Source of the DNA: Myxococcales bacterium
GTDB lineage: Bacteria; Myxococcota_A; Polyangia; Polyangiales; Houyiibacteriaceae
Direction of reading: 5' to 3'
Length of the DNA stretch: 64,000 bases
NCBI GenBank assembly: GCA_029862185.1
Contig: JAOTXX010000013.1
Span: 408 to 64,407, forward strand
Part shown: positions 1,750-12,831 of the stretch, in pieces
Layout: each line of letters opens with the position of its first letter
Numbering within the stretch: the stretch's first letter is position 1
Notes under the pieces: generated by a model
What the model saw: the letters and a program-made list of their open reading frames with translations, nothing else
What the model was told of the DNA's origin: nothing
The model's database searches: none
Made by a program: the position numbers and the translations under genes

Positions 1750-2505
1750 TTGGTTCAAGCGCTTCAAGGTCCGAGCTTAGAAGAGCGAGTCGCCCAGCTT
1801 CAAGAGTTGCTCGATTCTGCCAACGCGCAGGTGCGGCAAGAGTATCAAGAGCGCTTCGACATCGCCTGGATCTACCACGACAGCGCGCTCGAAGGCGTCG
1901 TCTACTCCATGGACGAGCTCAGAGCGGCAATCTACGACGAGGCCATCACAGACCCAGCACTCATCCCCGTCTATGACGAGGTCCGAAACCACATGGGCGC
2001 GATCGAGATGATTCGCGAGATGTCCTCCCGCCGCCGCTTCACGGTGAACCTCGACGTCATCAAAAAGCTTTACGCTCAGCTGGCGCCCGAGGAGCTCGAG
2101 GGGAAGGGGCCGCCGAAGTACCGCAAGGACATGCCGCTTCATCGGCTCTACTTCCATGAGATCTCGCAGCCGGACAAGATCAGCTACCGTATGCGGCAAC
2201 TCGTTCAATGGCTTTCGGATCCGGACACCAAGAAGACGATGCACCCGGTTCGCATGGCCAGTAAGGCGCACTACCAGCTGCTTCACATTTATCCATTCCC
2301 GCGACATAGCGGCAAGGTCGCGCGACTCGTGATGAACCTGATTTTGATGCGAGGGGGTTTTCCCCCGGTCGTGATTCATGCAACCGAGCGGCAGCGATAC
2401 TACGAGGCCCTTCGCAGCGGTGAAGACGCGACCGCGACCCTGGTGAATCAGGCGCTCGGCGCGGCGATCGAAACTGCGATTCAGTATTTCGAAGAAATGA
2501 AGTGA
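1750..2505 (+). CDS. Fic-domain protein with degenerate active-site motif
   Basis: AHYQLLHIYPFPRHSGKVARLVMNLILMRGGFPPVVI aligns with the Fic core HxFx(D/E)GNGRxxR. Tyr replaces the catalytic His, and R-H-S replaces (D/E)-G-N. An N-terminal DSALEG resembles the inhibitory-helix motif. The start codon is TTG, as given in the ORF track. Confidence 0.75.
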   Translation: MVQALQGPSLEERVAQLQELLDSANAQVRQEYQERFDIAWIYHDSALEGVVYSMDELRAAIYDEAITDPALIPVYDEVRNHMGAIEMIREMSSRRRFTVNLDVIKKLYAQLAPEELEGKGPPKYRKDMPLHRLYFHEISQPDKISYRMRQLVQWLSDPDTKKTMHPVRMASKAHYQLLHIYPFPRHSGKVARLVMNLILMRGGFPPVVIHATERQRYYEALRSGEDATATLVNQALGAAIETAIQYFEEMK

Positions 2506-2509
2506 CCCG

Positions 2510-3077
2510 CTATCGCGCGTCGTCGAGAAAGCGCGAAAGGGCCGAAATCACCGCGAGATAACGCGCACCGGCTTGCAGCGTTTCCGCCGCGTTTTCCGGG
2601 GAAATTCCACCGATGGCGACCACCGGCCGAGACACGGACTCGCAGACCTTCGTGAGCTTTCCCAGGCCAACGATGGGCTCCGGGTTCTCCTTGGTTTTGG
2701 TTGGGTAGACCGGCCCGAATGCGATGAGATCTGCGCCCTCGGCCTCTGCCGTGATGGCCTGTTCGAGGCTGTGGGTCGAAACTCCGATTTGCATGTCGCC
2801 GACGACTTTCCGGGCATCGTCGATCGAGAGGTCGTCTTGCCCGAGATGCAGACCGTCCGCCTCGACCATGTGTGCGATGTCAGCGCGGTCGTTGATGACG
2901 AAAGGAACCCCGGCGTGCCCACACGCGGAACGGACCCGTGTTGCGATCTTGAGAAACGAGAGGTCATCGAGGCGCTTGGCGCGAAGCTGCACGATGGCGC
3001 AGTTCGCGTTCAACGCCTTGAAGGCCAGCTCGAGCGGGCGTTCTGCGTACTCTGCATCCACGATCGCGTAAAGCGAA

Positions 3078-3085
<8 letters not shown>
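2510..3085 (-). CDS. thiE: Thiamine-phosphate synthase
   Basis: 191 aa with ThiE/TMP-TENI motifs LHLGQDD, IGVSTHS, GPVYPTKTK and VVAIGGI. The TTG start overlaps the aguB stop by 8 nt. Confidence 0.9.
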
Positions 3086-3937
<852 letters not shown>

Positions 3938-3941
<4 letters not shown>

Positions 3942-4936
3942 GACGTGCTGGGTTGGGCTTGTGTGACGCAGTGAAACGCTCCGCCTCCCCATAGCAGATC
4001 TGTGGCGGGCAGGCCGACCACCTCCCGGCCCGGAAAGGCATCGGCGATCGCTCCGAGCGCGGCATCGTCTTCGGCGACGCCGTAAGTCGGAACGATCACG
4101 GCGGAGTTGGCGATGTAGAAGTTGCAGTAGCTAACGGGCAGCGGCGCGCCGTTGGGAGCCCGGAGCGCCGGCGGCGCGGGGACGCCCAGCACCTTCAGGC
4201 CGGCGGCGCGCAGCTTCTGTTCGATCGAATGAAGCAACTCGGCATTCGGCGCGCTTGGGTTCGACTTCATGCAGATGACGGTGTCGAGCGCGGCGAATCT
4301 AGCGATCATGTCGATATGACCGTCCGTGTGGTCGTGTTCCAAGCCCTCGTCGAGCCAAATCAACCGCTCCATGAACACCCGGTCCGCCAACGCATTTTCA
4401 AAAGCTCCGCGCGTCAAGCCCGGGTTTCGGTTGGGGTTCAACGCGCATGAGACTGTGGTCAGAAACGTCCCTTGGCCGTTCGTGTCGAGGGCGCCTCCCT
4501 CGAGGACGACTGGACACTCGAAGCGCCGGGCTCGCAGCCGCTCGGTCAACCAGCCGCTGACGCGTCCATCGAAAGGCATTTCGTACTTACCGCCCCAGCC
4601 GTTGAACTCGAAGCAGAGAGCACCCAGCTCGCCATTGTCCCGGTGCCCGATTAGCGGCGCCGTGTCGCGAAGCCAGCAATCGCCGTAGTCGGTGGTTACG
4701 TAGCGAACGTTGCGAACGTCGCCGATCAAAGACCGTGCGCGCGCTTCTATTTCTCCGTTTGTCACGAGCAGGCGTACAGTCTCGTCTCCTCGGTCTGCGA
4801 TTGCGCGGCACAAGGCCGCGATCGACGCCTGTGCTGCGCCAAGATTGAACGGCCATTCGTCCTGCAGATAGGGAAAGGCAAGCCAGCAGGCGGAATGCGG
4901 CTCCCACTCAGCCGGAAGCCGAAGTCGTTCCTTCAC
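3938..4936 (-). CDS. aguA: Agmatine deiminase
   Basis: N-terminus MKERLRLPAEWEPH, WLRDTAP, and the C-terminal catalytic-Cys motif GGGAFHCVTQ are typical of agmatine deiminases. It sits next to aguB. Confidence 0.9.
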
Positions 4937-4945
4937 CCTCGAAAC

Positions 4946-5947
4946 CTACCACGCGAACACGCGTGCCTCACCGAAGCGCGCGACCATGGCGTCCACATGT
5001 TCGAGGACCGCGCGACGGCGCTGTTCGAGGCCGTCTAGTTGCTTCTCATTCAGGACGGGAGCGAGCGGATCTTCACGCAATTTGGAAGAAAATCGCTCGA
5101 TATCCAGCGCTCGCACCGCGTCGATCGTCGACCGTCGGAAGCGCTGGAGAGCCTTCAAGCGAGCCTCCATCAAGCCAAGACGCTGCTCTCCGAGCCAGAA
5201 CCCAGCACCGTTGTCCAGGTAGATCAACGGCCCGCCCTTTCCCCGAGATCTCAGATTGGTGAAGTCACCACCCCAGCGGTCCACGTTTTGGGTGAGGTAG
5301 TCGAACACGATCAGATCGGAGAGCTCCGCCGGCCGCACCTCGATGTCCGGAGCCTGCGCGATCGGCCGGCTCGGGTCCGTCGCCTCCCGAATCCCAGGGC
5401 GGCGATTCAGGTCCGCGCGATAGTCTACGGGCCGTTGGTACGGCGTGATGGGAAGCGACTTCTGGACTCGTACCCAGCGTTCCCAGTTGCGGCCCATGCG
5501 GACTCGCTCGAGGGGCTCGGGGATCCACCAAACGAATGCGCCCTTGAGCGTGCCGTCCTCTTCAATACCAAGCTCGCTCACCCTCGAGTCCGTCCCTGCA
5601 GCGGCTCGAAGCTCGCTCCAGCGAAACCTGCGACCGGTCGTAGGGGGCACACGGCCCATGCCGAGCTCGCGATCCAAGTAGTAGGCAGCGATCTCGGAGT
5701 ACCAGTGTGCGGCCGAAAAGGTTTGCTTGGGCTTGAAGTAGCCTCGTGTGCCGTCGGTCAGCGTGACCTTGAACGCCAGGCTGCGACCGCCTTTGCCTTT
5801 CTTCACGTCGGTAACTTCAGCGGTCCGCAGGGCCTCAGTTCGCCGGGCGTCGGGATGTCCGAGGAAGGCAGCTCCGGCGTCCGCTGCGGCTCCCGGCGAC
5901 GGCGAAAGGAGCGCTACGAAGACGAGAATGGGGGCTAGCCGCACCAC
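4946..5947 (-). CDS. Secreted Fam20/four-jointed-like protein kinase homologue (signal peptide plus Fam20-type kinase core)
   Basis: Only the 3' two-thirds of ORF 4946..6430 looks coding; the upstream part overlaps the OCD gene and is Arg/Pro/Gly-rich. A GTG at 5947 (or 5944) gives the signal peptide VRLAPILVFVALLSPSPGAAADA. The motifs GYFKPKQ, EIAAYYLDRELGMGRVPPTTGR, VFDYLTQNVDRWGG and IYLDNGAGF are collinear with the FAM20C kinase core as I recall it. Confidence 0.7.
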   Translation of the reverse strand: MVRLAPILVFVALLSPSPGAAADAGAAFLGHPDARRTEALRTAEVTDVKKGKGGRSLAFKVTLTDGTRGYFKPKQTFSAAHWYSEIAAYYLDRELGMGRVPPTTGRRFRWSELRAAAGTDSRVSELGIEEDGTLKGAFVWWIPEPLERVRMGRNWERWVRVQKSLPITPYQRPVDYRADLNRRPGIREATDPSRPIAQAPDIEVRPAELSDLIVFDYLTQNVDRWGGDFTNLRSRGKGGPLIYLDNGAGFWLGEQRLGLMEARLKALQRFRRSTIDAVRALDIERFSSKLREDPLAPVLNEKQLDGLEQRRRAVLEHVDAMVARFGEARVFAW

Positions 5948-6018: not shown

Positions 6019-6996
6019 CTAATCGATCGATGGGGCGTCGAGGCCGAGGAGGTCGACCTCCTGGCCGATCGATTGACCCTGGGCAGCGTCGTAGATCGCG
6101 CGCGCGAGCGAAACGTCTTGGATGGCGAGGCCCGTGGAGTCGAACACGGTCGTCGTCGAGACGTCCGGCTTCGGCAACAGGCCCGCAACGACTTCGCCCA
6201 ACGTCCCCGCCAGTTGGCTGGCCGCGATGTCTCCGGCCGCGAGGGGGACGTTGATCTCCCCGCTCCCCGTCGCCTGATGGATGTCGTCGATGTAGACGGC
6301 CGAGCTCTGCAGCAGCTCGGTGGCGAGCTCCTGCTTGCCCGGCGCATCGGCACCCATGGCATTGATGTGGGCGCCGCGATGGATCCACTCCGCGTGCACG
6401 AAGGGCGTTCGTGACGGCGTCGCCGTGCATACGATGTCGGCACCAGCCGCTTCTTCCAATGTGACCACACGCGCGCCAACCCGATCGGCGAAGGCGGCTG
6501 CGGTCGCTTCATTGCGGTCGTACGCGAGACTTTCGAAGCCGTCGAAAACCACCTGGTGCGTGCCATGCAGGGTAGAAGCCTGCACTCCACAGCCGATGAA
6601 TCCGATCGTCTTCGGATTCTGCTGCGCGAGGTACTTGGATGCGACTGCGCCTGCGGCACCCGTGCGCAGCGCGGTGAGCAAGGTGCCGTCCATGATCGCG
6701 AGTGGAAACGCGTTTGCCGGATCGTTGAGCACGTAAACAGCCATGACGGTTGGCAGCCCGAATCGCTTGCGATTCTGGGCGTGCACATTCACCCACTTGA
6801 TGCCCGCAGAGTCGCCGAGGCGTGATGGCATCGCTCGGAAGTCGCCGTCGTGATCCGCGATCGGCAAATAGATTTTGGGGGGCATGGTCGCCTCGCCGCG
6901 CCCGATGGCGGCGAATGCGCGCTCCACGGCAGAGACCGCAACCTCCATCGTTGCAAGTCGTTCAACCTCGGGTCTCGTCAGCACCAGCGTTTTCAT
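6019..6996 (-). CDS. Ornithine cyclodeaminase / mu-crystallin family enzyme (possibly archaeal-type alanine dehydrogenase)
   Basis: 325 aa with the Rossmann motif IGFIGCGVQA and the overall OCD/mu-crystallin pattern (MPSRLG..GIKWV, INAMGAD.PGKQEL). Confidence 0.85.
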   Translation of the reverse strand: MKTLVLTRPEVERLATMEVAVSAVERAFAAIGRGEATMPPKIYLPIADHDGDFRAMPSRLGDSAGIKWVNVHAQNRKRFGLPTVMAVYVLNDPANAFPLAIMDGTLLTALRTGAAGAVASKYLAQQNPKTIGFIGCGVQASTLHGTHQVVFDGFESLAYDRNEATAAAFADRVGARVVTLEEAAGADIVCTATPSRTPFVHAEWIHRGAHINAMGADAPGKQELATELLQSSAVYIDDIHQATGSGEINVPLAAGDIAASQLAGTLGEVVAGLLPKPDVSTTTVFDSTGLAIQDVSLARAIYDAAQGQSIGQEVDLLGLDAPSID

Positions 6997-7074
6997 CAGC
7001 TCAGCCTCCCCGTAAACCCTTTTCGCCGCACGACGCCTTGGGTATAGTGCGCCCCGTTCACTTTAACTAGGAGA

Positions 7075-7497
7075 ATGACGATGTCCCCCTCTGCACTTGC
7101 GCTCGTCGGCTATGTCGCTTGGACGATCTTGTTGGCTGCGACGATCGTTTTCTATCGCACCTTGCTCGTGGTCAAAGAGAAACGCGCTGCAAACGACTTT
7201 CTCCCGAGTGGTGAAGACGTCTCTCCGTTCTCCAACCGGCTTTGCCGCGCGCAGGCCAATTGCTACGAGAATCTGCCAGCATTCGCGGCGCTCATTCTTC
7301 TCGCGCTGGTGACCGACAACGCAGGCATCACCGATTCGCTCGCGCGTTGGGTGCTCGTCGCGCGCGTGGCTCAGTCGACCGTGCATCTGATTTCGACGAG
7401 CGAAATGGCCGTTTCTCTTCGCGCCGTTCTTCTCCTCGTCCAACTGGGAATCGAGGCCTACTGGGTCGTTCAACTCGGCCTGCTGGGCTTTGGTTAG
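7075..7497 (+). CDS. MAPEG-family membrane protein (glutathione S-transferase-like)
   Basis: 140 aa with about 4 TM helices. The conserved loop RAQANCYENLPAFAALIL is typical of MAPEG proteins. Confidence 0.7.
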   Translation: MTMSPSALALVGYVAWTILLAATIVFYRTLLVVKEKRAANDFLPSGEDVSPFSNRLCRAQANCYENLPAFAALILLALVTDNAGITDSLARWVLVARVAQSTVHLISTSEMAVSLRAVLLLVQLGIEAYWVVQLGLLGFG

Positions 7498-7505
7498 CCG
7501 AAGGA

Positions 7506-10500
7506 TTAGTGGAAGTCTCGGGAGCGGTGGGTTTGCTCCGCGAGTGAAACATCCGGCGCCCATAAAGACTTCGCGATCAGGTGAATGACGCCGTCGGCCC
7601 TTTGAATCTCTCCGGTCACGCCGAGCAGGGCAGCGGTTTTGGCGAGCGCAGCATGGCGGTCAAAGACCTGCTTCCAGACGACCACATTGACGAAGCCGGT
7701 TTCGTCTTCGAGCGTGAAGAAGGTAACTCCGGACGCCGTGCCCGGACGCTGGCGGCAGATCACCATGCCGACATACTCGAGCTCATCCCCGTGTCCGCAG
7801 CCATGAATTCGGCTTGCTTCGGGGATGCCTCGTGAACGAAGCGCGTCGCGAAGCCCTCGCATGGGATGGCCGCGCGTGCTGTGATGACTCGAACGGTAGT
7901 CCCAGATCACCTCGTCCTCGCTTGCCAAGGAGGCAAATGAAATCTGACTCGACGCCGGCTCGAGCGGCAAGGAATCCTGCGCGAAACGCGAGAGGCTCCG
8001 CACCTGCCAAATCGCGTTGCGCCGGTTGAGCCCGAAGCACTCGAAGGCGCCTGCTTCGGCCAGCGCGTGCAGAGCCTTCTTATTGAGCCCGGTCTGCCGA
8101 ACGAAGGTCGCGAGGTTTGGCAGTGGCCGCTTCGTCGCCTCGACCCGGTCGCGCTCGAGTACTCCGAGCCCCTTCACGTATCGCAGCCCCATCCGTACCC
8201 CGTAAAGACGACGCTTTGCGGCGTCCACGGGGCTTTGCTCCTTCTCGTTTTCTATCGGGAATAGGGTGCAATCCCATTGGCTTTTGTTGATGTCGATCGG
8301 GTGAACCTCGACGCCGTGCCGCTTGGCGTCTTCGACCAGGGTCGCCGGGCTGTAGAAGCCCATCGGCTGGGCATTGAGGATCGCGCAGGTGAAAGCTTCG
8401 TGGTGATGACGCCGCAGCCAGGCGGTGACGTAGGCGAGCAAGGCAAACGACGCGGCATGGCTTTCGGGAAAGCCATACTCGCCAAAGCCGCGAATCTGCG
8501 AGAACACGCGCTCCGCAAACTCCTCGGGAATGCCTTCTTCGAGCATCCGTGGGACCATGCGTGCTCGATGCTTCTCGATTCGACCGGACTTGCGCCATGC
8601 GGCCATGTCACGGCGCAGCTGATCGGCTTCGCCCGCCGTATAACCTGCCGCATCGACGGCCAGCTTCATCACTTGCTCTTGAAAGATCGGAACGCCAAGG
8701 GTCTTCTTCAAAATGCGCTCCAACTTCGGGTGCGGATAGTCGACTTCTTCTTCGCCTTTCCGCCGACGCAAGTACGGATGCACCATGTCACCTTGGATGG
8801 GACCAGGGCGCACGAGCGCGACTTCGATCACCAAGTCGTAGAAGGTACGTGGTTGAAGCCGTGGCAACATCGCCATCTGCGCGCGGCTTTCGATTTGGAA
8901 GACGCCGACCGTGTCGCCTTTGGACACCATTTCGTATGTAGCTTTGTCTTCGGCAGGGACGGTTGCGATCTCGAGGTCTTGACCCTTGTGCTCGCGCAGC
9001 AGATCAAACGCACGGTGAATGCAGCTGAGCGCACCGAGGCCCAAGAGATCGACCTTAAACAGGGCCAGATTGTCGACGTCGTACTTGTCCCACTGGATGA
9101 CGGTGCGGGCCTCCATGCTGGCCGGCTCGATCGGGACGATCTCGTCGACCGGCCGGTGTCCGAGCAAGAAACCACCTGGGTGAATCGACAAATGCCGTGG
9201 AAAATCGAGCACTTGAGTTGCCAATGACCAGAGCTGCTGAGTGGCCGGCGCGTCCTTATCGAGGCCAGCTTCACGCAGGAGCTCAGTGTTGAAGGTGTCG
9301 TCGCGATGCCTCAGCAGTCGTGTCGCGGTTTCCAGATCCGTTCGGGCCAAGCCGAGCACCTTGCCGACATCACGGACCGCCGAACGAATCCGATAGCGAA
9401 TGATGTTTGCCACCATTGCTGCGCGGCGGCGTCCGTACTTTTCGTAAACGTGTTGAATGACTTCTTCACGGCGCTCGTGCTCGATGTCGAGATCGATGTC
9501 TGGAGGCTCAGCTCGCTCAACGCTCAAAAAACGTTCGAACAACAAATCCATGCGCACAGGATCGATTGCCGTGATGCCCAGACAAAAGCACACGGCGCTA
9601 TTGGCAGCACTGCCGCGTCCTTGGCACAAAATGTTTCGCTGACGGCAGTATTGGACGATCTCGTACATCGTGAGGAAGTAACCGCCATAGTCCAGCTTGC
9701 GAATGATTTGAAGCTCGCGCTCGATTTGTGCGCGAACGTCGGAAGGCAACTTGCCTTGATAGCGTTTGCGCGCGCCACGAAACGTGAGATCGCGTAGCCA
9801 GCCCTGTTCACTGTGCCCTGAAGGCAGATTCTCTTCGGGGTATCGATAACGAAGGTCATCGAGACTGAACGTGCACTGCTCGGCGATCTCGACCGTACGA
9901 CGAATACATGCCGGGTCGTCCGCAAAGAGACGTTCGAGCTCCTGAGCGGGTTTGAGGTCGTGCTCTGCGTTTGCGTAGATCGTGTGCCCGGCCTCGGAAA
10001 GCACTTTTCCCTCTCGAATACAGGCTAAAATGTCTTGCAGAGGGCGCCGTAGCTTGTCGTGATAGAGGACTTCGTTGACGCCTACCGTCTGCACGGAGAG
10101 CTCTTTTGCGACGGAGCGCATGGCTTTCTCTTTCGGCTTCTCGTGGTCGCTCAGATGACGTGCACAAAGAGCAAACACCGACGAAGGGCCATGACTCGCA
10201 TGTAAGGCACGCAAGGCTTCGGGGCTTGCAGCAAGAAAAAACAAATCGTGAAGTGGAGCGAGCTCTTCGCCGTGAATGAGAGAAGTGCCTTTCTCACAGC
10301 GGGCATGCCCGAGTGACAAGACTCTACAGAGATCAGCGTAGCCGCGTCGCGTCTTGGCGAGCGCCACGACATGCTGTGCATGCCCTTCGATCTCGACCAT
10401 GAGTTGGGCTCCAGTCACGATGCGAACTCCGAGCTCTTTGGCTCGCATCTGCGCGCGGACCAGGCCGTACACTCCGTCGCGGTCGGTGACTGCAACTGCG

Positions 10501-10604
10501 GGAAGACCAAGCGCATGTGCGCGTTCGACGAGCTCTTCGGGAAAGGATGCGCCTTCCAAAAAACTGTGGTTGCTCTTGACCCACAACGGAACGTAAGTGC
10601 TCAT
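7506..10604 (-). CDS. dnaE2: Error-prone DNA polymerase III alpha-like subunit DnaE2 (ImuC)
   Basis: 1032 aa with an N-terminal PHP domain (YVPLWVKSNHSFLEGAS..VAVTDRDGVYG), a Pol III alpha core and a C-terminal OB fold. It lies directly downstream of imuB with no gap. Confidence 0.95.
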   Translation of the reverse strand: MSTYVPLWVKSNHSFLEGASFPEELVERAHALGLPAVAVTDRDGVYGLVRAQMRAKELGVRIVTGAQLMVEIEGHAQHVVALAKTRRGYADLCRVLSLGHARCEKGTSLIHGEELAPLHDLFFLAASPEALRALHASHGPSSVFALCARHLSDHEKPKEKAMRSVAKELSVQTVGVNEVLYHDKLRRPLQDILACIREGKVLSEAGHTIYANAEHDLKPAQELERLFADDPACIRRTVEIAEQCTFSLDDLRYRYPEENLPSGHSEQGWLRDLTFRGARKRYQGKLPSDVRAQIERELQIIRKLDYGGYFLTMYEIVQYCRQRNILCQGRGSAANSAVCFCLGITAIDPVRMDLLFERFLSVERAEPPDIDLDIEHERREEVIQHVYEKYGRRRAAMVANIIRYRIRSAVRDVGKVLGLARTDLETATRLLRHRDDTFNTELLREAGLDKDAPATQQLWSLATQVLDFPRHLSIHPGGFLLGHRPVDEIVPIEPASMEARTVIQWDKYDVDNLALFKVDLLGLGALSCIHRAFDLLREHKGQDLEIATVPAEDKATYEMVSKGDTVGVFQIESRAQMAMLPRLQPRTFYDLVIEVALVRPGPIQGDMVHPYLRRRKGEEEVDYPHPKLERILKKTLGVPIFQEQVMKLAVDAAGYTAGEADQLRRDMAAWRKSGRIEKHRARMVPRMLEEGIPEEFAERVFSQIRGFGEYGFPESHAASFALLAYVTAWLRRHHHEAFTCAILNAQPMGFYSPATLVEDAKRHGVEVHPIDINKSQWDCTLFPIENEKEQSPVDAAKRRLYGVRMGLRYVKGLGVLERDRVEATKRPLPNLATFVRQTGLNKKALHALAEAGAFECFGLNRRNAIWQVRSLSRFAQDSLPLEPASSQISFASLASEDEVIWDYRSSHHSTRGHPMRGLRDALRSRGIPEASRIHGCGHGDELEYVGMVICRQRPGTASGVTFFTLEDETGFVNVVVWKQVFDRHAALAKTAALLGVTGEIQRADGVIHLIAKSLWAPDVSLAEQTHRSRDFH

Positions 10605-12086
10605 TCAATCGAGCACCCCATGCAAGAACCAGCGTCTCCTCGGACGGTCGTAGAAGAGCCAGAGCAAATCGCCGTGATCGGTTTCGGCGTAGTAGTAGTC
10701 GCGTTCGACGAGGCGCTTCCACCAGCCACCGCTCACGCGGTACGGCCCGTACAGGTGCTCGATCGCATGGTTTTTCGCGAGCGAAGGACCGGCCTGGGGC
10801 TCCTTTGGCACACGTGGAGGAAGCGGCTTGGGGCGAGCGTAAACCCGTCGAACCATGGATGAAATTGACGCTGACTCGGATTGCTCGCCGAGTCGTGCGT
10901 GCTGAATGGGCTCCCAGAGAAAAGAGGCCTCCGGCAAATGCGCTTCGCGAAGGCGTGCCTTGGTCACCGACTGTTCGCCGTACGTTGCACGGACCCGGTC
11001 GAGCGCCCGATGTGCAGTTCTCATGTCGCGACGGGGTTGATGACCGGGGAGCGCAACTTGCTCCGCCTGTGCGCGAACTGTCTTTGCAAAGACTTCCACT
11101 TCTTCGACGGCGCCTTGCAAGCTCCTCTCACCGAGTCGAAGACGAATGAGCTCGAGCAACAACATCAGATCCAAGGTCGGCGAGGCTGGCTCGATTTGTT
11201 CGTGATGCAGGGGTGCGCGTTCCAAATGGAGTGAAAGCTCGAGAGATTGGATGGATTCTCCGCGTGCGCGCACCTGATGCAGCAAGGAGTGCAAGGCGCC
11301 TTTGATTGCAAACAGCAGGCGGGTTTGATCTTTGTCGGGTGGATCGACTTGAAAAGAGATGCGGGCTGGCTCGTCGAAGACCTGTGGCTGAATCGGCAGC
11401 TGCATGTCGTCGGCAAACGAATCGTGAAATGCACTTGCACGAGCACCGAAACGGCTCAGCAGCTCTCCGGCAGGCACGGCGAGAAAATCGCCGAGCGTTT
11501 CGATACCCAACGTGCCAAGGCTTTCGCAGAGCTCCCCGGGCAAATCGAATTCACGCAGCACGGTTTTGTTCGAACGTTCGCGCTCTTCATCGGCGCTCTT
11601 CGAGATGCCGACCCCGACCTGCGCCATCGCGACCGCGAGCGCCCGCTGGCGATGAAAGCCTACCGTCACCGAGTTGCGCCAGTGCCGGGCCCGTAAATAT
11701 CGATGAATCGAGCTAGCCCAGTTGCGATAGCCGCCATAAAGTCGCCGGAGTCCTTCGGGATCGAGCTGAAACGCGCCGGCCTGATCGAACGCTTCGACCC
11801 GAGGCGAGAAGGTTTGAAGTGCTCCGATCAGCTCGCGGCAGACCTCCGAGACCTCTTCGGGCAAGACGACGGCGGTGTGCAGATTCGGCAGAAGATCACG
11901 CGCGACGGTTTGACGCATGCCGATGCGAAGGCGGCTCTTTTTTGCAAGCGCGTTGAGGTGTGTGATGCGGCCATTCGGGCCTTCGTCATCGACGACGACA
12001 ACAGGCGCAGCGCTCCAATTTGGCTTTTTACGCAACAGAATTTGCAATGGCAGCATCGGCAAAAGAACGCAGCTCACTCGTTTCAT
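10605..12086 (-). CDS. imuB: ImuB, Y-family polymerase-like mutagenesis protein
   Basis: Start taken at ATG 12086 (MKRVSCVLLPMLPLQILLRK), which forms an ATGA overlap with the imuA stop. The 235 codons upstream in the track ORF overlap imuA and are low-complexity. Position between imuA and dnaE2 supports the call. Confidence 0.85.
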   Translation of the reverse strand: MKRVSCVLLPMLPLQILLRKKPNWSAAPVVVVDDEGPNGRITHLNALAKKSRLRIGMRQTVARDLLPNLHTAVVLPEEVSEVCRELIGALQTFSPRVEAFDQAGAFQLDPEGLRRLYGGYRNWASSIHRYLRARHWRNSVTVGFHRQRALAVAMAQVGVGISKSADEERERSNKTVLREFDLPGELCESLGTLGIETLGDFLAVPAGELLSRFGARASAFHDSFADDMQLPIQPQVFDEPARISFQVDPPDKDQTRLLFAIKGALHSLLHQVRARGESIQSLELSLHLERAPLHHEQIEPASPTLDLMLLLELIRLRLGERSLQGAVEEVEVFAKTVRAQAEQVALPGHQPRRDMRTAHRALDRVRATYGEQSVTKARLREAHLPEASFLWEPIQHARLGEQSESASISSMVRRVYARPKPLPPRVPKEPQAGPSLAKNHAIEHLYGPYRVSGGWWKRLVERDYYYAETDHGDLLWLFYDRPRRRWFLHGVLD

Positions 12087-12715
12087 GACCTGCCTCGCAA
12101 ACCGGACGGAGCGACTGGGTTGATCGATGAAAGCTCGGAGGCGATTCCGACTTTGTCTTTGAGAACATGTGTGTGAACTTCGAAACGATCGGCGTGAAGA
12201 GGACCGCGTTGCGGCTCGACGCGTAAGCCAACCAAGGGACCCGAAGAAGGCTCTTCGCATGCGCTCGAAGTGAGCAAGAGAATGCGTCCGTCGTACTGAC
12301 GCAAGAGGCCTTGAAGACGACCTTGCCAGTTGACCGAAGAGCCTGGCGGGAGCGCATCGCTGAGGTCGATGACCGTCAAGCCAAACGCACCGGAACGCGC
12401 AAGCCACTCGGCCGCGCGAACCAGTGCAAACGGACCTGCATGACGCGGAACGTGAATTACGATGAACGAATCGAGTTCGACTCCCGCCGCGTCGAGGTCG
12501 GGAGGAAACAAGGCGCCGTCTTTGGGCTGTACCCAGGCGACCAACTCGGCCCGCGCCTGCGCTTGGATCACGCAGGATACGGCTGTCGTCGTTCGTGCAC
12601 AGGCATGCCGCCCCGAGACCTCGACCAGCCGCCCCTGCGGCAAGAGCTCCGAGAGCGGCAAAGCTTTGGCTCGAACATGCCGAGCCTCGAAATCGATGAC
12701 AGTCCCAAAAGCCAT
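12083..12715 (-). CDS. imuA: ImuA, RecA/SulA-like SOS mutagenesis protein
   Basis: Shows the RecA-fold-like pattern LLPQGRLVEVSG..TTTA..AWVQP..GLTVIDL. Start taken at ATG 12715 (MAFGTVIDFEAR). The track's TTG start at 12820 lies in an A/T-rich promoter and terminator region. Confidence 0.8.
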   Translation of the reverse strand: MAFGTVIDFEARHVRAKALPLSELLPQGRLVEVSGRHACARTTTAVSCVIQAQARAELVAWVQPKDGALFPPDLDAAGVELDSFIVIHVPRHAGPFALVRAAEWLARSGAFGLTVIDLSDALPPGSSVNWQGRLQGLLRQYDGRILLLTSSACEEPSSGPLVGLRVEPQRGPLHADRFEVHTHVLKDKVGIASELSSINPVAPSGLRGRS

Positions 12716-12725
12716 GGGACCACCC

Positions 12726-12753
12726 AGTATACTGAACAAAATACCAGTGACAA
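12726..12753 (-). promoter_or_regulatory. Candidate sigma70-type promoter of imuA with an embedded LexA-like (SOS) operator
   Basis: The minus strand reads TTGTCA-CTGGTATTTTGTTCAG-TATACT-GGGTGGTCCC-ATG. This gives a -35 TTGTCA, a 16-nt spacer and a -10 TATACT. The spacer is CTG-N10-CAG and contains the GTTCAG half-site of the myxobacterial LexA motif. Only 10 nt separate the -10 from the ATG. Confidence 0.5.
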
Positions 12754-12784
12754 GAGGGACACTCTCCTCCGTCGCAACCCCTTG

Positions 12785-12831
12785 AAAACAAAAGGAAAAC
12801 AAGAGAAAGATCGCAATCAATTGTTGCGATC
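12785..12831 (-). terminator. Candidate Rho-independent terminator downstream of the cNMP-domain gene
   Basis: The minus strand forms the hairpin GATCGCAA-CAATTGA-TTGCGATC (8-bp perfect stem, 12809..12831). It is followed by the T-rich tract TTTCTCTTGTTTTCCTTTTGTTTTC. The hairpin begins 32 nt after the stop at 12863. Confidence 0.5.

Follow-up and report, generated by a model that had tools for sequence, protein, structure and literature searches.

A Fam20-type kinase homologue with a predicted export signal in Myxococcota, a minimal bacterial form of the animal fold

In this work we looked at a gene in a 64,000-nt stretch of DNA from a Myxococcales bacterium (contig JAOTXX010000013.1; the window, within which all positions are counted), which encodes a 333 amino acid protein that is a true homologue of the animal Fam20 kinases. 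We make this assignment because the Pfam profile, the comparison of the sequence with solved structures and the tests of fold all agree. Based on its sequence, the protein is probably a minimal bacterial version of the Fam20-fold kinases that is exported and catalytically competent. What is new is a large, deeply diverged Fam20 family in Myxococcota, in a literature that is otherwise restricted to animals save for one mention in a preprint. In animals, Fam20C phosphorylates most of the secreted phosphoproteome and the xylosylkinase Fam20B gates proteoglycan synthesis. A bacterial branch of these enzymes raises the question of whether bacteria carry out ATP-dependent phosphorylation in the periplasm or extracellularly, and of what the source of that ATP would be.

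Homology and predicted fold

The coding sequence and the parts of the protein that are discussed below are:

4946..5947, minus strand: Fam20-like coding sequence, 333 amino acids, GTG start at 5947, TAG stop at 4948-4946
5882..5947, minus strand: predicted Sec signal peptide, residues 1-22 (MVRLAPILVFVALLSPSPGAAA / DA), cleavage approximate, after Ala21 or Ala22
5723..5740, minus strand: beta3 motif Y-F-K-P-K-Q with the putative ATP-binding Lys72 (codon 5732-5734), from alignment with the Fam20 F-K-P
5660..5698, minus strand: helix equivalent to alphaC, S-E-I-A-A-Y-Y-L-D-R-E-L-G, with Glu85 (codon 5693-5695), from alignment and a helix predicted at residues 82-95
5339..5455, minus strand: lineage-specific insertion (LPITPYQRPVDYRADLNRRPGIREATDPSRPIAQAPDIE), about residues 165-203, between the two lobes
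5255..5305, minus strand: catalytic loop F-D-Y-L-T-Q-N-V-D-R-W-G-G-D-F-T-N, residues 215-231, with Asp223 (codon 5279-5281), from alignment with the Fam20 F-D-F-L-x-G-N-x-D-R-H-H-Y-E
5198..5218, minus strand: L-D-N-G-A-G-F, the putative metal-binding equivalent of the kinase DFG motif, with Asp245 (codon 5213-5215) and Asn246

Reading of the window upstream of 5947 shows no further in-frame start codon before the end of the preceding gene (stop at 6019), and the N-termini of orthologues line up with this GTG; the longer open reading frame of 494 amino acids from the mechanical list runs into the upstream gene, in a different frame. The mature protein is calculated to be about 35 kDa and strongly basic, with a pI of about 9.8 and 40 Arg. 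No paralogue was found inside the window and no NCBIfam model matches the protein.

The protein had first been recognised as a Fam20-type kinase in a sequence-only reading, which compared short motifs with strings ascribed to FAM20C. All of the quoted motifs are found in the translation: GYFKPKQ (residues 69-75), EIAAYYLDRELGMGRVPPTTGR, LIVFDYLTQNVDRWGG, IYLDNGAGF and REDPLAPVLNEKQLDGLEQRRRAVLEHV. The claim that the mature protein has no cysteine also holds, and extends to the whole protein, which has none. The comparison strings themselves were misattributed, as they belong to human FAM20A (chains 5wrr and 5yh2). This mix-up leaves the conclusion on homology standing because the motifs are common to all Fam20 proteins.

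The Pfam hidden Markov model for Fam20C (PF06702) matches the window protein with 40.8 bits (E 2.6e-10), above its curated gathering cut-off of 26.8. When the single sequence was compared with the Protein Data Bank (PDB) by phmmer, human FAM20C was the best match (E 2.6e-12) and the matches consisted of Fam20 proteins only, namely FAM20C, zebrafish Fam20C, FAM20A, Hydra Fam20B and C. elegans Fam20. A family profile was then built from 104 bacterial members, which are the window protein and 103 representatives; PF06702 itself matches 81 of them. Against the PDB this profile finds FAM20C with E 9.8e-42, in an alignment that takes in both lobes (chain residues 107-430), and it also finds drFam20C, FAM20A, hmFam20 and ceFam20. 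The next family to appear is the type II phosphatidylinositol 4-kinase PI4K2A, with E 0.013.

An AlphaFold2 (AF2) model, built on the family alignment, gave a mean predicted local distance difference test score (pLDDT) of 93.6 and a predicted template-modelling score of 0.90, and low confidence is confined to the first ~26 residues. In a Foldseek search of the PDB with this model, ranks 1-28 are all Fam20 proteins (E 6e-16 to 1e-10; template-modelling (TM) scores 0.54-0.68), and the first match outside the family is PI4KIIalpha (E 4e-5, TM 0.37). Among viral structures (BFVD) there were only distant matches of the PI3K/PI4K type. Thus the structural comparison called for by the earlier reading again points to Fam20. 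The same reading had named CotH and HipA as folds that might turn out to be closer, and both identities can be rejected: the CotH Pfam profile matches none of the 104 family members at E <= 0.01, HipA profiles do not match the window protein and HipA_2 is marginal in 8 of 104 relatives (best E 2e-4), and neither is among the 50 best Foldseek PDB matches listed.

Active site, export signal and proposed activity

The anatomy of the protein was mapped on the AF2 model and by aligning it with 12 Fam20s of metazoans, and conservation was counted over the 104 bacterial sequences, which go down to 26% identity with the window protein. Lys72, which is located in a predicted strand (residues 68-73), corresponds to Lys133 of Hydra Fam20 (hmFam20) and is Lys in 100 of the bacterial sequences and in all 12 metazoan ones. 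Glu85 corresponds to ceFam20 Glu218, the canonical alphaC Glu, and is kept as Glu in 99/104 and 12/12. In the catalytic loop D216 and R224 are invariant (104/104), N221 is found in 103 and D223 in 101 sequences, and all four are present in every metazoan sequence; Asp223 is the equivalent of hmFam20 Asp299, which touches the acceptor hydroxyl (PMC5865150). In the following L-D-N motif D245 is invariant and N246 is kept in 93 of the 104 bacterial sequences, both being found in 12/12 metazoan proteins. The model further shows a kinase-like Gly-rich turn between two strands (residues 50-56, KGKGGRS) and a C-terminal helix, D-P-L-A-P-V-L...Arg310, whose R310 is kept in 102/104 bacterial and 12/12 metazoan sequences. 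Orthologues at 48-93% identity retain every one of these conserved active-site residues. The insertion at residues ~165-203 is found in the clade of the window protein and is missing from other bacterial clades; it is conserved among orthologues and modelled with block-mean pLDDT values of 85-98.

The first reading stated that all catalytic positions are intact. This is correct for the four canonical positions (Lys72, Glu85, Asp223 and Asp245), and the catalytic Lys and Asp are kept both here and across the 104 divergent relatives. It does not hold for the acidic ion-pair residue that is specific to Fam20 (ceFam20 Glu213, hmFam20 Asp152). The position, five residues upstream of Glu85, is Ala80 in the window protein; the column holds A/S/T in 87 and D/E in 8 of the 104 bacterial sequences, against D/E in 12/12 metazoan ones. 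The loop that carries this acid, Kbeta3-Kalpha3, is shortened by ~16 residues in the bacterial proteins. Absence of the acid need not mean inactivity, since its loop is missing in bacteria and the canonical Glu85 is conserved.

With regard to location, the N-terminus resembles a signal peptide, with a short n-region that contains Arg3, a hydrophobic core of 13 residues and an A-A-A small-residue site, and in the AF2 model this segment is unstructured (pLDDT 58-61). A hydrophobic, signal-like N-terminus was found in 109 of 109 close homologues. Of the 103 divergent representatives, 30 carry a lipobox with a Pro/Ala-rich linker behind it, 55 begin with a hydrophobic segment that may be a signal peptide or an anchor, and 18 have neither, several of these looking truncated at the N-terminus. 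One bacterial clade keeps a pair of Cys at positions of a metazoan disulfide, as expected in an oxidising compartment. These N-terminal signals, lipoboxes or anchors and the Cys pair support an extracytoplasmic location of the family, which agrees with the earlier suggestion that the protein is periplasmic or secreted.

Based on these observations a mechanism can be proposed. The protein would be exported by Sec, its signal peptide would be cleaved near Ala21/Ala22 and the mature protein would sit in the periplasm or outside the cell. There, Lys72 on beta3, held by Glu85 of alphaC, would position the ATP phosphates, one or more divalent cations would be bound by Asp245 and Asn246 of L-D-N, and Asp223 of the N-x-D-R loop, as the catalytic base, would activate a hydroxyl of the substrate for phosphotransfer. 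The hydroxyl would belong to an extracytoplasmic macromolecule. Homology, fold and active-site residues support the view of the protein as a periplasmic or secreted bacterial kinase of the Fam20 fold, while export, use of ATP, activity and the class of the substrate are features that we infer from sequence.

Several points weigh against this proposal. The periplasm is generally considered poor in ATP, which creates a problem of phosphate donor. The ion-pair acid is replaced by Ala80, and in Fam20A a Gln at this site is one of the causes of inactivity (PMC5865150). The window protein lacks all three regions by which Fam20B and Fam20C select their substrates. The calls of signal peptides are heuristic, made by reading the sequences with simple rules of hydrophobicity. 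No neighbouring gene is shared across the family in the ten contexts inspected, and the downstream aguA and aguB are cytoplasmic polyamine enzymes that suggest no extracytoplasmic substrate. Regarding ATP, the example of Lig E, an ATP-dependent ligase that is targeted to the periplasm (PMC10799422; bioRxiv 10.64898/2026.03.22.713542), indicates that the supply problem can be solved.

One alternative is that the protein is exported with a Fam20 fold and is not a conventional kinase, being either a pseudokinase scaffold or an enzyme for AMPylation or glutamylation as in SelO or SidJ. The loss of the ion-pair acid and the scarcity of ATP outside the cytoplasm would both fit this option, and atypical kinase folds were repeatedly found to catalyse other reactions (references listed in PMC7948968). 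However, the 104 sequences show hardly any change in the Lys-Glu pair, in the catalytic Asp or in the metal-binding Asp-Asn, while pseudokinases usually lose at least one of these, and the canonical Glu85 can pair with Lys72 as it does in ordinary kinases. Compared with a pseudokinase of the Fam20A type, the protein has likewise lost the ion-pair acid, with its canonical catalytic residues strongly conserved. We regard a non-kinase role as unlikely.

Another option is a cytoplasmic kinase. Its hydrophobic N-terminus would then either result from a wrongly chosen start codon or be an inward-facing membrane anchor, and there would be no problem of ATP. The heuristic nature of the signal call leaves room for it, as do the short n-region with its single Arg and the several close homologues that have no basic residue before the hydrophobic stretch. 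Against it stand the lack of any other in-frame start once the upstream gene has ended, a hydrophobic segment with small residues behind it in all 109 close homologues, the lipobox and Pro/Ala-rich linker of 30 divergent relatives and the metazoan-type Cys pair of one clade. This makes a cytoplasmic location distinctly improbable, and an exported kinase remains the reading that we prefer.

Gene neighbourhood and candidate substrates

The genes that flank the Fam20-like gene on the same strand are:

3078..3992, minus strand: aguB, N-carbamoylputrescine amidase (NCBIfam TIGR03381, 422.6 bits, above the cut-off of 410.25; conserved synteny)
3938..4936, minus strand: aguA-like gene of the agmatine deiminase family (Pfam PAD_porph, E 1e-98; NCBIfam aguA equivalog, 220, below the cut-off of 381.8)
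6019..6996, minus strand: gene of the ornithine cyclodeaminase / mu-crystallin family (OCD-family; Pfam PF02423, E 1e-90), 71 nt upstream of the Fam20-like start

The start of aguA (4936) lies 9 nt after the stop codon of the Fam20-like gene, and thiE follows aguB on the same strand. The head-to-tail arrangement with aguA, aguB and thiE, which was already noticed in the first reading, is confirmed and is conserved, with aguA directly after the gene in 40 of 44 assessable related loci. It is part of a block that is conserved in the lineage and runs imuB-dnaE2, MAPEG, OCD-family gene, Fam20-like gene, aguA, aguB, thiE, Fic, thioredoxin-like gene and histidine kinase, although the OCD-family upstream neighbour varies across related loci. 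A scan for promoters and terminators gave no promoter-like site on the plus or the minus strand, and between the OCD-family gene and thiE the minus strand has no terminator-like site. The Fam20-like protein is often better conserved than the product of the adjacent aguA.

This arrangement could be taken to indicate a small-molecule kinase that is tied to the pathway from agmatine to putrescine and phosphorylates or senses a guanidino or polyamine compound. The short distance to aguA, with no terminator-like site on that strand, is in line with such a role, and the order of the three genes is kept in the 40 loci down to 48% identity (L045). The trio also recurs on the P0136 contig, where the surroundings are unrelated: the flanks differ, there is a 7-nt overlap and a pyruvate kinase gene takes the place of thiE. 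Yet P0128, P0146 and P0153, whose divergence is similar, and all other clades have unrelated neighbours with no aguA or aguB. AguA and AguB show no signal peptide by reading, which would place them in a compartment different from that of the kinase homologue, and no member of the Fam20 family is known to act on such small molecules. A polyamine-linked role is thus very improbable, and we read the link to aguA-aguB as an operon that is limited to the lineage of the window and not as a clue to the function of the family.

Outside this lineage, two distant members adjoin genes for glycan-modifying enzymes. At locus L051 the Fam20-like gene (8001-9164) lies next to a divergent gene for a phosphodiester glycosidase of the NAGPA family (PF09992; 6672-7880, minus strand), whose animal namesake is a Golgi enzyme of the mannose-6-phosphate pathway. 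At L047 the Fam20-like gene (8001-9251) lies next to a divergent gene for a polysaccharide deacetylase (6769-7920, minus strand). These two cases give a hint of a glycan substrate. At L054 the gene of a Fam20-like paralogue with seven Cys (P0173; 1739-2842) is convergent with one for a protein that combines MopE copper-binding and C-type lectin parts (2814-3812, minus strand). C. elegans Fam20 was reported to phosphorylate lectins (PMC6829671), and the lectin next to P0173 may be a coincidence. We rejected inference of the substrate from gene neighbourhood, as there is no common neighbour, the glycan-related ones are anecdotal and aguA-aguB is limited to one lineage.

The class of the substrate cannot be taken from homology either, because the regions for Fam20B and Fam20C specificity are missing. 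These are three sites, namely the Kbeta3-Kalpha3 loop insertion, the Cys-rich Kbeta6-Kbeta7 insertion and the Lys or Arg behind D-N-G/A (Ala248 here), that decide between xylose (Fam20B) and protein (Fam20C) as substrate and that mediate dimerisation of Fam20C (PMC5865150), and when the residues were mapped against this work both a Fam20B-like and a Fam20C-like specificity were rejected. From the sequence, the substrate is not the Gal-Xyl linker of Fam20B, nor is it demonstrably the S-x-E motif of Fam20C. A glycan of the cell envelope or a secreted glycan is a tentative candidate, and Ser/Thr of a secreted or envelope protein is possible too, with a weak and slight leaning towards the glycan. 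The leaning comes from the few distant members with glycan-related neighbours and from the earliest animal Fam20s, which were sugar kinases (PMC5865150) and which make a sugar substrate plausible.

Some other features of the neighbourhood were observed. The aguB open reading frame as listed overlaps aguA by 55 nt (3938-3992); the profile match begins at residue 25 and there is a Met at residue 18, so that the real start is probably at ~3941, giving a 4-nt overlap with aguA that is typical of translational coupling. For the OCD-family gene the best NCBIfam model is the archaeal-type alanine dehydrogenase TIGR02371, with 342 bits and below the cut-off of 409, and ornithine cyclodeaminase is weaker. 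In most related genomes no other gene of the neighbourhood is as well conserved as that of the Fic/DOC-domain protein (1750-2505, plus strand); in syntenic loci its identity is 79-100%, compared with 52-87% for aguA and 54-92% for thiE, an unusually strong constraint for a Fic protein. The imuB-dnaE2 genes (7506-12791, minus strand) form a damage-inducible mutagenesis cassette, with a DnaE2-type DNA polymerase III alpha subunit of 1032 amino acids and an ImuB of the IMS family, and are syntenic in relatives. The mechanical open reading frame of imuB extends upstream for ~200 codons beyond the conserved part, and its true start is probably internal.

The bacterial family, the animal enzymes and known systems

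An exhaustive search of representatives clustered at 50% identity found 856 clusters of the family at E <= 1e-3, 411 at E <= 1e-10 and 86 at E <= 1e-30. The few named proteins among them are labelled Deltaproteobacteria, Myxococcota, Polyangiales or Kofleriaceae, and the single named one of the distant representatives is from Kofleriaceae (Myxococcota). Family members are annotated as hypothetical proteins, many already carrying PF06702 from precomputed Pfam. A collection of species-representative genomes was scanned with patterns taken from the window protein, which reach close relatives only, and gave 45 loci; all are Myxococcota metagenome-assembled genomes (MAGs) or chromosomes (Polyangiales, Sandaracinaceae, 'Myxococcales'). 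Two 'Myxococcales bacterium' MAG records among the loci, L017 (CP070713.1, 3.54 Mb) and L024 (CP070650.1, 2.78 Mb), are titled as whole chromosomes. A size of 2.8-3.5 Mb is very small for a Myxococcota chromosome.

Although Fam20 is otherwise known only from animals (PMC5865150, PMC9758233), contamination of the assembly by a eukaryote, or a very recent transfer from animal to bacterium, is refuted: synteny is conserved in 45 genomes of Myxococcota, among them closed chromosomes, and GC and GC3 (overall and third-codon-position G+C content) equal those of the neighbouring genes, two facts for which we read the gene as native; the protein also lacks the metazoan insertions and cysteines, and the bacterial family has 856 clusters.

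The relation to the animal enzymes was examined from the other side with a profile made from 12 animal sequences (Fam20B and Fam20C), which matches 103 of the 104 bacterial sequences. Its best scores, up to 112 bits, fall in a clade other than that of the window, whose protein has 69 bits (rank 15). In an unrooted neighbour-joining tree with 100 bootstraps the animals are monophyletic (100/100) and stand beside this best-scoring clade, which has 15 members, though with a support of only 50/100. Both Cys of the C341-C400 disulfide of hmFam20 (disulfide list from PMC5865150) are present in 15/15 sequences of this clade and in 0/89 of the other bacterial sequences. The clade, which is probably a better candidate for the source of animal Fam20 than that of the window, consists of the Fam20-like lipoproteins P0181, P0183, P0191, P0193, P0195, P0196, P0199, P0206, P0207, P0211, P0212, P0219, P0223, P0229 and P0243 (loci L046 and L047-L049).

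Since the bacterial family is broad and the bacterial architecture simpler, a transfer from bacteria to the animal stem is favoured by the sequences, with the direction left undecided by the unrooted tree. It is a possible though tentative reading that the animal Fam20s come from an exported kinase of Myxococcota, through a horizontal transfer at the base of animals, and that the bacterial family is a system for extracytoplasmic phosphorylation with ATP. If this is true, kinases that are exported by Sec or anchored as lipoproteins would phosphorylate outside the cytoplasmic membrane, and we are aware of no such bacterial system that has been described. The transfer could also account for the machinery behind the phosphorylation of secreted proteins and of proteoglycan linkers. 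In the literature, Fam20s are treated as enzymes of the animal Golgi lumen (PMC5865150, PMC7948968, PMC9758233), and a survey of Legionella, human and amoeba kinases describes the FAM20 cluster as specific to Metazoa. A preprint from 2026 names FAM20B among five possible contributions of Myxococcota to eukaryotic endomembrane functions; it adds that the signal is not always unequivocal and does not examine FAM20B (bioRxiv 10.64898/2026.05.08.723234). Apart from this passing mention, we found in the searchable literature no dedicated description or test of bacterial Fam20 homologues.

Among known systems, CotH and HipA are the bacterial folds usually named as relatives of Fam20; both have an atypical kinase fold and belong to the same broad superfamily. 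CotH, from the Bacillus spore coat, acts in the cytoplasm of the mother cell and is not exported by Sec. It was described as similar in sequence to Fam20C (PMC12189002). FAM198/GASK1 is another kinase-like protein of the secretory pathway with a relation to Fam20. Its profile (Pfam PF15051) gives E 0.0014 with the window protein, below the threshold, and reaches E <= 0.01 in 38 of 104 family members, always more weakly than Fam20C.

Fam20A, the pseudokinase activator of Fam20C (5wrr), shares with the window protein the lack of an acidic ion-pair residue (Gln in Fam20A, Ala80 here) and its motif strings align well. It differs in that in the window protein the canonical Lys, Glu, Asp and Asp-Asn are present and strongly conserved and the ion-pair loop is absent.

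Fam20B, the glycosaminoglycan xylosylkinase, and Hydra Fam20 (5xom, 5xoo) have the same fold and catalytic residues (profile E 2.9e-31, Foldseek E 1.4e-14). The window protein, like Fam20B, has no Fam20C dimerisation motifs, and because these are missing it is probably a monomer. In contrast, the Gal-Xyl pocket is not kept: hmFam20 T114/Q115 are replaced by Arg55/Ser56, H301 by Trp225 and K321 by Ala248, and the Tyr148-Tyr151 loop of hmFam20 falls in a stretch missing from the bacterial proteins. The proteoglycan linker is not known to be made by bacteria.

Fam20C (5yh3, 5yh0; ceFam20 4kqa) is the best sequence match and its chains fill most of the top structural matches. Both proteins have the F-K-P, E-I-A-A-x-x-L-D-R, F-D-x-L-x-x-N-x-D-R, L-D-N-G-x-G-F and D-P-L-x-P-x-L...R motifs, and both are targeted out of the cytoplasm, by prediction in the case of the window protein. 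Animal Fam20s use a type II membrane anchor, whereas a cleavable signal peptide is predicted here. The window protein also differs from Fam20C in having neither the D/N-F/H-F-Y-F-S/T-D motif nor the C-D/S-Y-Y-C loop. The Arg after D-N-G is Ala248, in a column that is A/L/M/G in bacteria against K/R in metazoa, and the ion-pair Glu is Ala80. The core is ~15 residues shorter than the aligned core of FAM20C, and the Cys-rich Kbeta6-Kbeta7 insertion of animal enzymes is missing from the bacterial proteins. There are no disulfides, with none of the four metazoan ones (hmFam20 C207-C222, C212-C215, C267-C340 and C341-C400) being present; the 15-member clade described above has just the equivalent of C341-C400. 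The protein thus fits neither functional subtype and would represent a minimal third type of the Fam20 superfamily. Its Cys-free core of 311 residues is a tractable minimal Fam20 that should be easy to produce in E. coli as it has no disulfides, and it can be useful for the study of the catalytic mechanism without the metazoan insertions.

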